Part shown: one piece after another, positions 4,741-55,155 of the stretch
Position numbering within the stretch: the first letter of the stretch is position 1
Layout of the letters: each line of letters opens with the position of its first letter
Source: Eledone cirrhosa
Lineage: Eukaryota
Reading direction: 5' to 3'
Assembly (NCBI GenBank): GCA_964016885.1
Contig: OZ024741.1
Location: 109,554,001 to 109,618,000, forward strand
Length of the DNA: 64,000 nucleotides
Notes under the pieces: generated by a model
Databases searched by the model: none
The model's input: the letters and a program-made list of their open reading frames with translations, nothing else
Told to the model about the DNA's origin: nothing
Translations under genes and position numbers: made by a program

Positions 4741-4967
4741 TATAAATATGTAGGGTAGTACTAAGTACTAGCCGGTTACCGGTATGACAAAAGGCTCAAT
4801 GCAAATTTTCAAGTGGTTTACAGAGCCGAGATACAAAGTGTTAAAACGATCAAATTTTATTTAAGAACATTTATTTGCTGACAATTGTTTCTCCAGAGGG
4901 AAGTCTGGAAGAAACAATTGTCAGCAAATAAATGTTCTTAAATAAAATTTGATCGTTTTAACACTTT
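4741..4967. mobile_element. Mini fold-back of a Penelope-like 3' end
   Basis: Near-perfect ~58-bp arms (4835-4892 / ~4910-4967) containing GAAACAATTGTC (hammerhead 3' half). The left arm is extended by ~95 nt; the right arm abuts (TA)n. Confidence 0.6.
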
Positions 4968-7160
4968 ATATATATATATATATATATATATATATATATA
5001 TATATATATGTATATATATATAATGTATATATATGTGTGTGTGTGTCTGTCTGTGTGTGAGTGAGTGTGTGTGCGTGTGTGTGTGTGTGTGTGTGTGTGT
5101 GTGTGTGTGTGTGTGTGTGTGTGTGTGTGTGTGTGTGTGTGTGTGTGTGTGTGTGTGTGTGTGTAATGTAGATTAACAAGCTGTGTCGGTGGGTAACCAC
5201 AGTTAAAAAGAATACTTGTATATTGATAGATTATAGGTATCTTTATTATATATATAGAAATTACTTCTACAGGACTAGAAATGTTTATATATATATATAT
5301 ATATATATATATATATATATATATATATATATGTCTGTGTGTGTGTGTTTGTGTGTCTGTTTGTTTGTGTGTCTGTATGTACACACAGATGGAAGAATAG
5401 ACAGGTGAGTAGAGTATGTACAAATGTGTGGTCTTGCCCTCACCTGCATGAGAATTAGAAACTTGCGAAGATAACATCAGCAACAGCAGCTACTACTACT
5501 ACTACTACTACTACTACTACTACTACTACTACTACTACTACTACTACTACTTTTGTGCCTGACTACATTAATAGATAGATGAATATTAGTACACGTAAAT
5601 AGTTTACGCACAGAAATACCAAACACACACATAAGCGCCAACTCACATAACTACATGCATATATATATATATATATACATGTGTGTGTGCATATATATAT
5701 ATAGAGAGAGAGAGATATATATATCATATTTTATATATATATATATATATATATATATATATATATATATATATATATATATATATATATATATATATCA
5801 TATTTTATATATATATATATATATATCATATTTTATATATATATATATATATATATATTATATTATATATATATATATATTATATTATATATATATATAT
5901 ATATATATATATATTATATTATATATATATATATATATATATATTATATTATATATATATATATATATATATTATATTATATATATATATATATATATAT
6001 ATATATATATATATATATATATATATATCATATTTTATATATATATATATATATATATATATATATATATATATATATATATATATTATATTATATATAT
6101 ATACATATATATATATATATATATATATATATATATATATATATATATATACATGTACATGTATATATATTGTGTATATATATATATAGAGAGAGAGGGG
6201 GGAAGAAGGGAGAGAGAAAGAAACAGAGAAACAGAGACAGATTTTTGTGCGTAGATGTTCATATATTTTTATATCTACATATATTCATAGATATTCGCCC
6301 ATTCTGTTTATACATACATGCATACGCACATACACACACACACATACAATTATATATATATATATATATATATATATATATTTCATATATATACATATAT
6401 AGATATAGATATATGTATATATATATATGTATATGTATATATATATATATATATATATATATATATATATATATATATATTTATTTGTATATATATATAT
6501 ATATATATATATATTATATATACACACATATATATATATATATATATATATATATATATATATATATATATATATATATATATATATGTATATATATATG
6601 TATATATATATATATATATATATGTGTATATATATATATATATATACTTACCTACCTACAAACATACATACATACACATAGCACATGCATACATATACAT
6701 GTACACATACGCACATTTATACATACATGTCTATATAGACTATTGACAATATATAATTGTGTACATAGCTGAAAGCCAGCAGCACTTAAATATGGTGTGT
6801 AGATTGAGGGAGGTGGGGTGGGATACGGTCTGTAAACCTGTTGTTTTCCGACATATTTCTTCATGCTTCAAGGATAATAATTCCTATACACAAGCGAGAG
6901 TGACGTTTAACGAATGTTTAATAGTTGTAGTATATGTATGTATGTATGTATGAATGTATGTATGTATTTATGTTTGTATATATATGTATGTTTGTATGTA
7001 TGTTTGTATGCAAGTTTCTATGTATGTATGTATGTATGAGTGCATATATGTTTGTATGAGTGTATGTATTTATGTATGAGTTTATATGTGTGCATGTATA
7101 TGTATATAGTTATGTTTGTATGCTTCTATGCATGTAGATATGTATACATGTGTGTAGCTG
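4968..7160. repeat. Microsatellite field: (TA)n, (TG)n, (TAC)n, (TATG)n
   Basis: Directly visible simple repeats; all YI/TH ORFs here are artefacts. Confidence 0.95.
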
Positions 7161-7399
7161 TATGTACACGTAAATGTGTTTCATTTTTAATGATTTGAAC
7201 TCTTCCTCTAAAGGGGAAGCTGTTTTCCAACAAAAGGCAATTCTTCGTCGTTGGAATTTGGATAACAAAAGTAGTGATTATCATACGTGTAAAGTTACAA
7301 AATAGTTTTGTATATTTTTACTATTCCATTCACAGATCTCATGTATAAGCTAAACGGTAATTAATTTCTTTGTAAGAAAATCCCAGCTGTTACAGATTG

Positions 7400-7970
7400 T
7401 CGTTTGGTCATTTACTACCAAAGCCAAGCCTTTTGGGCATTTACTAACCAGCTAAGGTCATTTGGTCATTTACTACCATAGCCAAGCTTTTTGACCATTT
7501 AATAGCATAGCCAAACCATTTGGACATTTACTAGCATAGCCAAGGTCAATTGGTCATGTACTACCATAACCAAGGTCATTTTGTCATTTACTAACATAGT
7601 CTAGGTCAATTGGTCATTTATTTCCTTTGTCAAGATCATCTGGTCATCTACTACATAGTCAATATCATTTGGTAACGTAGTGAAGGTCATCTGATCATTT
7701 ACTAACACAGCCAAGATCATTTGGTCATTGTCTACCTCTGCCAAAGTCATTTAGTCATTTACTATCATGACCAAGGTCATGTAATCATTTATTGACATGA
7801 CCAAGATCATGTGATCATTTACTACCATAACCAAATACATTTAGGCATTTACTAACATAGCTGATGTACTTTGAGCCTCGAGTATCTAAGCTAGGTCGTT
7901 TGGCCATTTACCAGCTTAATTCAGACATTTGGCCATGTACTAGGCCAGCCAGAGTATTTAGGTATTTACT
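7400..7970. repeat. Degenerate ~30-bp minisatellite (ttggtcatttactaccatagccaaggtcat), about 18 units
   Basis: Head-to-tail units with no unique spacers. Confidence 0.85.
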
Positions 7971-52800: not shown

Positions 52801-52975
52801 ATATACATATATATATATATATATATATATATATATATATATATATAAACATATATATATATATATATATATATATATATATACATATATATATATATAT
52901 ACATATATATATATATATACATATATATATATATATATATATATATATATATATATATATATATATATATATATA

Positions 52976-54980
52976 TAGGAACCAGTAAGACCCCGACAGC
53001 TGAGCTCAAGCCGTTTCGACGGCTAATTCTGGACTAAGTGAAAATTAATCCTGGTATTTAAATAGCCGATCTTCTCAAGGGGTAATTCCATATATGGTCA
53101 AAGTGATTGTCAAAAATCAGTAGTAATTCTGTGGTTGCAAATTAGTAGGGGAGATGGTGGCTAAACCTGCCAGTAGGAGAAAGAGGGGAGGGGGTGGAGT
53201 AGCCCCAATCAAGCGTTTGTAGTGCCAGCTACAGCTGGGCATGAGGTCAAAGAAGATACAGGGGAGGGGGAGGGGGAGGAAGTCGGAACGGTAGGTAGAA
53301 CAATAGGGGTAGAAATATATAGGAAAGAAAAAATACTGAGAGTGAAGAAAAGCAAATACTGAGAGTGAAGAAAAGCAAATATGTGGCCCGGCGTCACGCC
53401 ACTACACTTTCGGGCCACATATGGGACCTCAAGGACAACAACATCACCTATGATCTCACTTGGAGATTACTGTCCAGAGCCAATTCTTACACGGGAGGAC
53501 GCCGTCCGTGCAATTTATGCTCGGAGGAAACTTTACAAATGCTGTTTTCGACGGACCAACTCCTAAACAAGAAAGATGAACTGGTTACTGCATGTAAACA
53601 TAGATTGCGTAGGACTTACCTCGCCCTCAAACCCCATAATGACCCGGGGGGGTAGACTAGGGCTATAACACCCCACTTGCCGATTTTGCAATGGGTAACC
53701 CCTGCTTGCCAAGGGAGACGTAAGATCTTCTTTGTATTCTTTTATCGCTTCCTTTATTTCCTTCCTTCCCCCCTCTCTCCTTAGTCCTTCTACACCCAGC
53801 TCTTCTCCTTTGTCGGCGTCTTTTCTCGCCCACCCGAGGCTGCCCTTTGGCCCCTTGTAGCCTTAGTACCCCCACCCCCTCCCCTAGTCTAGGATAGATT
53901 TGGCGGACTCCGCCCTTTATAGCAGTTGGTTTAGACCCCGGATACTTGTCCCCTTTTTCCGACCGCTCCCACTATTCTCTGTGCCCTCTATATTTCTCAG
54001 TGGCACTTATGCCTTATTTTTTCGTTTCAGTATTTCTTTCTTCGCTTTTATTTTGGGCGGGGTGGATTCTGAATTTATTCTTCCGTATTCTACCTTTACT
54101 TCGTACGAACTTTCATGTAGCTTGTTCTAGATCTTTTAGAGTTAGCATTAGTATATATTTTTCTCGGGACTCAGAATTATTATCTCGTATTAGTTCACTT
54201 TGCTGCACTGGGTGGTTGCTGGAATTGCGCCCGGGATGGAAACCTTTATTGTTTATTTCGTGGTAGTCTCTTTAGTATTTTGGCCCCTTTTGTTGACCCG
54301 TCACCGTATCATTTACGTACTTATACCTCTTAAAAGGGTCCTCGCCTATTCCGTCCCACCTAGTTCTTTTACTTATTTCGTTATTTCTTTATTTCTTTCT
54401 TTACTTCTTTCTTTCTTTATTTATTTATTTATTCTAGACTAACAATAGCCAGAGACCTAGGTCGTAGAATTTAATTTACTTTACTTTTTTCTTTACACTC
54501 CTTTGTTTTTCTTTACACTTATTTGCTTTTCTTCACTCTCAGTATTTTTTCTTTCCTATATATTTCTACCCCTATTGTTCTACCTACCGTTCCGACTTCC
54601 TCCCCCTCCCCCTCCCCTGTATCTTCTTTGACCTCATGCCCAGCTGTAGCTGGCACTACAAACGCTTGATTGGGGCTACTCCACCCCCTCCCCTCTTTCT
54701 CCTACTGGCAGGTTTAGCCACCATCTCCCCTACTAATTTGCAACCACAGAATTACTACTGATTTTTGACAATCACTTTGACCATATATGGAATTACCCCT
54801 TGAGAAGATCGGCTATTTAAATACCAGGATTAATTTTCACTTAGTCCAGAATTAGCCGTCGAAACGGCTTGAGCTCAGCTGTCGGGGTCTTACTGGTTCC
54901 TATTACCCACTCTACTACCTCAAGTATTGAGTACTTTGGTGCGTTATGGTCCACCTGGTTCCTTACCACATTTCCTTCGT
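52976..54980 (+). mobile_element. Penelope-like family B (Naiad-like) 3' part with inverted pLTR
   Basis: 52976-53360 is a near-perfect inverted copy of 54520-54902. The right end has a ~78-nt tail. (TA)n on both sides. Degenerate hammerhead at ~54796-54888. Confidence 0.88.
53378..53655 (+). pseudogene. GIY-YIG endonuclease C-terminal fragment
   Basis: TTLSGHIWDLKD....LTWRLL..A.SY....CNLC.EE.....LLNKKDELVTACKH, typical of aquatic-invertebrate Penelope-like elements. Confidence 0.8.
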
Positions 54981-54994
54981 TATATATATATATA

Positions 54995-55155
54995 TATGAA
55001 AATGTTTGACCCCGTTTCGACGGCTATTGTCGAAACGGCTTGAGCTCTGCCATCGGGGGTCAAACATTTTCCTATTACCCACTCTACTACCCTAAGTATT
55101 GAGTACTCTGGTGCGTTATGGTCTATCTGGTTCCTTACCACACCTCCTTCGTTTT
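54995..55155. mobile_element. Family B mini fold-back
   Basis: GAAAATGTTTGACCCC ... GGGGTCAAACATTTTC plus tail, between (TA)n runs. Confidence 0.75.

Follow-up and report, generated by a model that had tools for sequence, protein, structure and literature searches.

Twelve insertions in a 64,000-nucleotide stretch of the Eledone cirrhosa genome (contig OZ024741.1, positions 109,554,001 to 109,618,000; this whole stretch is hereafter called the window, with position 1 as its first letter) are dead copies of Neptune-like and Hydra-like Penelope-like elements (PLEs) in which two overlapping copies of the element end have been joined head-to-head. The host genome has a size of 3.0 Gb and is rich in microsatellites. 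The 3' end of these elements occurs in a short form (S) and in a tailed form (T). Self-BLAST comparisons, an inverted-repeat search and reading of the sequence located outward-facing element 3' ends at 12 of the 12 ranges listed by the original prediction, a first interpretation of the same DNA; its further claim that such insertions combine a short with a tailed end holds for ten of these ranges, the exceptions being 9562-9864 and 25968-26194. Seven families are represented in the window, two of them Neptune-like (A and A2) and five Hydra-like (B, e1, e4, e8 and e10).

The family A insertion at 15651-19556 (minus strand) possesses a long, 5'-truncated arm with a broken open reading frame (ORF) for a reverse transcriptase (RT) and a GIY-YIG endonuclease, ending with S at 15651, and an inverted arm of 443 nt that ends with T at 19556. 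The broken ORF (16046-19346, minus strand) is distributed over several frames and comprises an N-terminal part, the RT, a CX4CxxC linker and the GIY-YIG endonuclease. The tail occupies 19503-19556 on the plus strand; together with the end of the pseudo-long terminal repeat (pLTR), it encodes the ~27 codons with which the ORF begins, and the continuation is in frame in the read-through copy L027. Within the pLTR of family A, a motif scan detected a minimal type I hammerhead-like motif at 19309-19355 (plus strand) and further such motifs at 15840 (minus), 26850 (minus), 28535 (plus) and 34971 (plus) in family A and at 9636 (plus) in A2, while a scan of the window at the Rfam gathering score returned no match. 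Family A is additionally present as a two-armed copy at 26661-28781 (S left, T right) and as a mini at 34817-35165, with T at the left on the short arm and S at the right. The A2 copy (9562-9864) terminates with S on the right; its left arm is short, internally deleted, devoid of a tail, and ends in an internal TA tract.

Among the Hydra-like insertions, the family B copy at 52976-54980 (plus strand) consists of an inverted arm of 404 nt with S at 52976 and a long arm that carries the GIY-YIG C-terminus and the 3' untranslated region (UTR) and ends with T at 54980. Its 80-nt tail (54904-54983, plus strand) precedes, as read-through copies show, the first in-frame ATG. The observation that the tail resides on the long arm in this copy, but on the short inverted arm in 15651-19556, proved correct when the sequence was read. 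Subfamily copies of family B are a mini at 54995-55155 (S on the short, internally deleted left arm, T right), a mini at 41249-41406 (S left, flanked by a TG repeat, T right), and a hairpin at 25968-26194 that fits the general layout imperfectly: T is at its left, and its right arm stops 23 nt past S, inside the tail, in non-TA DNA. The e1 mini hairpin had been placed with its start at 4741; its real start is at 4702 (4702-4967), and it carries a 130-nt tail at its left end, outside (TA)n, whereas its right end runs with S into (TA)n. The e4 hairpin (22903-23397) has S at the left and T, with a 76-nt tail, at the right, running into (AC)n(TA)n. A second inverted pair (22748-22789 and 23474-23515) surrounds this element and its TA tracts, with both copies directed into the TA run. 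The e8 copy (39106-39808; S left, T right with a ~175-nt tail) harbors a SINE-like (short interspersed nuclear element) repeat at ~39210-39410, and the e10 mini hairpin (51881-52066) has T, with a tail of 66 nt, at the left and S at the right.

An endonuclease-containing (EN+) PLE parent was confirmed directly for families A and B, which combine a PLE-type RT with a C-terminal GIY-YIG endonuclease; e10, e8, e4 and e1 were joined to PLE ORFs by tblastn, with the e4 link stemming from a single long copy (L356). In family A, the Pfam RVT_1 match (E 3.4e-4) is below the cut-off and the GIY-YIG domain is undetected by Pfam; the endonuclease region possesses 56% identity to an uncharacterised Octopus bimaculoides protein, the only match naming an organism, which makes a cephalopod host likely. 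The linker of family A reads CIDKKCITC (CX4CxxC), and its GIY-YIG core holds two cysteine residues with a histidine downstream. In PMC8557442, Neptune elements are described by a CX2-5CxxC linker and CCHH-type endonuclease residues; judged by such motif features, families A and A2 fit Neptune. The same paper defines Hydra elements by DKT and RWK motifs, a CxCX5C linker, the lack of CCHH, C-terminal CxxC and CxH motifs, and a length generally below 3 kb. Family B carries DKT, RWR (not RWK), CNCPDRSIC (CxCX5C), CNLC and CKH and has no CCHH, the linkers of e10, e8 and e4 agree with the Hydra type, and e1 shows DKT and RWR only; by these features B, e1, e4, e8 and e10 appear Hydra-like. The ~1.3-kb 3' UTR of family B suggests a length above 3 kb. 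The families had been regarded as unrelated, which is only partly true, since they fall into two clades. The pLTR of family B is predicted to fold as a three-way junction with a variant hammerhead core, the family B minis are without the 5' half of this ribozyme core, and the hammerhead motifs of e10 and e1 were read by eye.

The positions of the element ends are bimodal, with two sharp peaks in each family having enough matches, and identical end positions recur across many contigs; hence, the end layout is not a product of chance, and the ends are not random. The spacing from S to T amounts to 60 nt in A, ~45-60 nt in A2, 66 nt in e10, 76 nt in e4, 80 nt in B, 130 nt in e1 and ~175 nt in e8. 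The tail length of ~55-155 nt given originally is accordingly to be widened to 45-175 nt, while its one-sided placement was upheld. The tail had also been viewed as a family-specific add-on, a notion that is not supported. Read-through copies of A (L027/L288), B (L063, L067, L075) and e1 (L241) run past the tail into the element's own 5' region, entering the ORF in frame in A; in B and e1 they enter the leader that precedes the first ATG. No copy of this kind turned up for e4, e8 and e10. As judged from these sequences, the tail of A, B and e1 is the element's own continuation and not a separate module.

TA-like bases fuse with the target at the element ends, AATAT at both S and T in family A and TAT at both in family B, and the e1 end motifs are TAT and ACT/A. 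A TA-like microhomology had been proposed for one end only; this is right for S, but T ends in such bases as well. Other TA-like motifs (in A, six upstream; in B, six upstream, two between the sites and four downstream) are mostly unused, and microhomology alone therefore does not select the sites. The tailed ends of e4 (L192-L220) carry (AC)n, and those of e8 (L247-L270) often (TG)n, of variable length before (TA)n; these tracts may reflect stuttering of the RT at its start site. Hammerhead cleavage as the source of the 3' ends, or of the 5' clusters considered below, was rejected: relative to S, the cut is predicted ~165 nt upstream in A and 19 nt upstream in B, whereas the arm starts cluster near -255 and -60, respectively.

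The pairing of the two ends was counted in five 200-kb blocks (1 Mb in all; one beside the window, the others at round-number positions on C1, C3, C4 and C5) and in genome searches that gave hundreds to thousands of first-look candidates per family, 40 of which were scored per search. The script used for the blocks reached segments of up to 450 nt between simple repeats, and reading by eye revealed two T/S minis, a copy with S alone, two long copies, and a copy truncated by the edge of a block, all of which the script had missed. The counts omit the window copies, the probable segmental duplicates L014/L015 and L298/L299/L304, copies with untraced far ends, and the read-through or complex copies L275, L283, L346 and L241. 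The 26 short family B copies in the blocks comprise 20 S/T copies, one S copy with a truncated tail, and five copies scored with one arm; S/S and T/T copies were both absent. All two-armed copies of this family are consequently mixed (21/21; p 5e-7 against 50%), and in four of the five one-arm rows there is a second arm of the opposite type that is tiny or diverged. Family A, sampled without bias for either end, yielded 20 S/T, four T/T and one S/S copies, whereas 49% mixed pairs are expected (p 0.002), so that mixed combinations dominate here as well, accompanied by a minority of same-type pairs. When copies were selected by their tail and read by eye, with partnerless copies outside the denominators, the visible partner was short in 16/17 cases for A, 19/19 for e10, 10/10 for e8, 9/10 for e4 and 10/10 for e1, which amounts to 48/49 in the four Hydra-like families. 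Some apparent singles in e10 and B possess a second arm of only 9-17 nt. These genomic counts suggest that start sites are not chosen independently at the two target ends. Family B has ~26 short copies per Mb in the sampled blocks, at uneven density. The expectation that tiny hairpins are a routine product was borne out.

Either arm of a copy can be the longer one. The S arm greatly exceeds the T arm in 15651-19556, L051/L078, L359, L360, L298, L307 and L311, and the reverse is found in other copies; therefore, both arms need an RNA-like template that includes the tail, and a simple fold-back is excluded for the long copies. Central joints show an overlap of at least 2 nt in 12 of 32 cases, compared with 14% in simulated joins (p 7e-4), and filler or a gap in 12/32, against a null value of 24%. 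Partner arms share subfamily letters (on average 0.8 mismatches versus 4.2 in random pairs), and discordance was not significantly higher in same-type pairs, taken together, than in S/T pairs (n=4 versus 15, p 0.28). One central junction shared by descent, in the manner of miniature inverted-repeat transposable elements (MITEs), was not seen, as the centres differ among 12 minis and contig joints; seven near-identical matches share arm starts, and the arm-identity test for family B covers 12 minis only. A search for empty sites bearing a pre-existing (TA)n, conducted with 75 elements with flanks, yielded no informative empty site.

The 5' boundaries of the arms are clustered as well. In family B minis, 36 of 42 arms start 48-78 nt upstream of S, adjoining a TCA(T/C)TT motif with an AT-rich box ~25 nt upstream, and the arm starts of e10 lie around a TCATT motif and the edge of hammerhead stem I. 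For family A, the starts of 14/30 pLTR-selected arms fall into a 27-nt interval directly preceding the AAGATGGCG motif, and A2 singles start at the same AA(G/A)ATGGCG motif as the A arms. The motifs at these 5' clusters may represent initiator, TATA-like and YY1-like sequences.

Based on the two fixed ends, the TA-like bases at both of them, the S/T pairing, the fact that either arm can be longer, and the overlaps or filler at the joints, we consider coupled dual target-primed reverse transcription followed by end-joining to be the best model, with a probability of about 60%. One ribonucleoprotein (RNP) would cut both strands of a (TA)n target; one complementary DNA (cDNA) would be primed at S and the other at T, coupled inside one complex, and one RNA might serve both with strand displacement. 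The 3' ends of the cDNAs would subsequently be joined by microhomology-type end-joining. Small hairpins would originate from priming at the site copy near the transcript 5' end, with both cDNAs running off after 60-260 nt, while long copies would need a tandem or circular template. A direct family A tandem in which both pLTRs are read through past the tail exists at L283 (G000:C3:345856174-345859532), and a locus of this type could template long copies. The central idea of the original prediction, two fixed end sites, use of both target ends and head-to-head joining of the products, is thus supported, with the priming itself deduced from genomic ends only. In vitro work with another PLE (PMC11167929) reported that both strands are cut and extended and that the RT starts at two internal sites bounding the tail; a dimer was predicted. 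More tentative, and in our view rather doubtful in its entirety, is a scheme in which a dimeric PLE RNP holds one RNA with two active RT sites 45-175 nt apart; each site would be primed, through a 3-5-nt match, by one end of a double-strand cut in (TA)n, giving every insertion a programmed S/T asymmetry. Priming at the 5' site copy would then yield tens of thousands of promoter-proximal hairpins as the default product, and stuttering maybe extends the flanking microsatellites in a telomerase-like fashion.

Several findings weigh against coupled dual priming. About 10-11 of 30 pLTR-selected family A copies, or roughly one third, are single-ended, and 5/25 of the two-ended copies of this family are T/T or S/S. 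The density of the elements is uneven: none of the six end queries matched the block G000:C5:60000001-60200000, compared with at least 15 family B copies in the C3 block. The shared subfamily letters cannot tell whether the arms come from a single RNA or from a single source gene, and shared arm haplotypes would also result if one source gene or gene conversion were at work; moreover, the arms of the T/T copy L276 belong to different subfamilies, and two RNAs can therefore supply one insertion. The tie of the 5'-end clusters to transcription starts is presumptive; the cluster of family A is immediately preceded by an AC-rich tract, and the cluster of family B maps to the loop portion of a predicted stem. 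Finally, the start site in the PMC11167929 study was without homology to the target and showed no strand difference, and coupling was not assayed there.

PMC8557442 and PMC11167929 call the formation of inverted PLE ends and tails open, and the former attributes the tail to endonuclease resolution. Applied to the copies studied here, a longer tandem or inverted DNA intermediate would be made first, and the TA-preferring endonuclease of the element itself would then nick one of its sides at S and the opposite side at T. A staggered cut of this kind would yield the S/T coupling without extra assumptions, both sites contain TA and resemble the target, and, according to prior work cited in PMC11167929, endonuclease recognition requires the tail. 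Yet the distance between S and T differs among families (45-175 nt), copies with only an S or only a T end are common, and RT starting on RNA at two tail-bounding sites has been seen in vitro (PMC11167929), so that we deem this route unlikely, albeit deserving of attention. An antisense RNA route was put forward in PMC3846280, and folding-back of one cDNA or antisense RNA at the 3' end, with copying as far as S, would produce obligate S/T pairs with identical arms; many minis are indeed near-perfect palindromes. Self-priming of this type, however, can make neither an S arm longer than T nor a T arm from a tail-less S arm, both of which are frequent, and most joints are asymmetric, with overlap or filler; we hence regard it as improbable, though conceivable for the symmetric minis taken alone.

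Random choice between S and T by two independent RNPs, each priming one target end, would explain why family A has a minority of T/T and S/S copies and why the arms of L276 are discordant. Apparent head-to-head joins between families (L194, L196 and L284; e4 with e8 or another Hydra-like ORF, and A with A2) were also observed; they possibly represent two RNPs serving one cut and perhaps find their explanation here. At most 50% mixed pairs are predicted by this scenario, though, versus 21/21 in family B and 48/49 short partners in the Hydra-like families; these counts led us to reject it as the main route, for which it is very improbable. Assembly artefacts are known to include short palindromes in repeat-rich DNA. 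The arms of the copies studied here differ by 0-6%, their tails are asymmetric, and the same end bases are found on many contigs. The fold-back concern was addressed in part with sequencing runs: in the raw Illumina reads of run X22, which comes from another study, the S end is represented by 1771 reads that reach 54903 and continue with TA, the T end is present too, and numerous different hairpin-centre joints, linking 53028-53037 with 54841-54849, are contained in the contigs of run X1. No X1 or X22 sequence piece spans a whole element, and X1 may be the assembly's own sample; an artefact is nevertheless extremely improbable.

In L1 twin priming, the second primer is used at a variable upstream site and gives rise to a non-overlapping inverted segment. 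It has in common with coupled dual priming two target ends that prime cDNAs, a microhomology joint and an inversion. In the PLE copies, however, the two sites are fixed, and the arms overlap, being copies of one and the same region; the label of twin priming, as used originally, is not supported in its L1 sense. The canonical EN+ PLE unit (PMC3846280; PMC8557442, Fig. 2 legend) shares the inverted 5'-truncated copy, the head-to-head joint, the one-sided tail and the (TA)n targets of Neptune and Hydra. Its tail likewise extends the start of the ORF, from 12 to 22 codons in Pen2a_Av versus from about 8 to 27 in A. It differs in a tail of 30-40 nt (PMC8557442), compared with 45-175 nt here; the target-site duplication is unreadable inside (TA)n, the pairing has been counted and is near-obligate in the Hydra-like families, and ORF-less hairpins of ~200 bp dominate family B. 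The Poseidon element PAc of the green anole (PMC11167929) belongs to a different clade; it resembles the elements described here in its two tail-bounding internal sites, its AT-rich target, and in ends that are not set by hammerhead cleavage, but its starts are described as non-homologous to the target, whereas a TA-like match of 3-5 nt is present at both sites here. According to bioRxiv 10.64898/2026.07.22.740005, non-LTR retrozymes are likewise small, pLTR-derived non-coding copies with hammerhead sequence; these are direct tandem repeats, while the minis are inverted pairs with varied centres.

The remainder of the window contains further repeats. Two copies of an abundant SINE-like repeat form a 281-bp near-perfect palindrome (97%) at 21973-22253 without a (TA)n flank. 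A broken non-LTR retrotransposon RT (Pfam RVT_1, E 4.6e-17) is located at 11840-14667, with a partial copy at 23960-25025; a 150-aa frame at 36249-36701, which had no Pfam match, is presumably reminiscent of the restriction-like endonuclease of non-LTR elements. Approximately 586 copies of an ACACC-type 5-nt repeat occupy 57122-60032.

The inverted pLTR, the tail often at one end and the (TA)n target have all been published (PMC3846280; PMC8557442). The head-to-head architecture is thus largely a known PLE signature, and the mechanism envisioned in the original prediction is close to the in vitro work of 2024. The literature searched contained no counts of end combinations, no twin priming for PLEs and no such minis, nor near-obligate S/T coupling, tails of 45-175 nt or ~200-bp hairpins with a shared 5' boundary; the tail reviews of 2005-2006 may say more. 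The present analysis adds to this a near-obligate S/T coupling that extends over both clades, tails that exceed the published length, bases resembling the target at either site, and a 5' boundary common to the minis. The ~200-bp family B hairpins could be misfiled as MITEs by annotation tools. The pairing counts turn the remark that the tail is often found at one end into a constraint on mechanism, and a start-site choice that is not independent bears on how the inverted ends and tails of PLEs arise.

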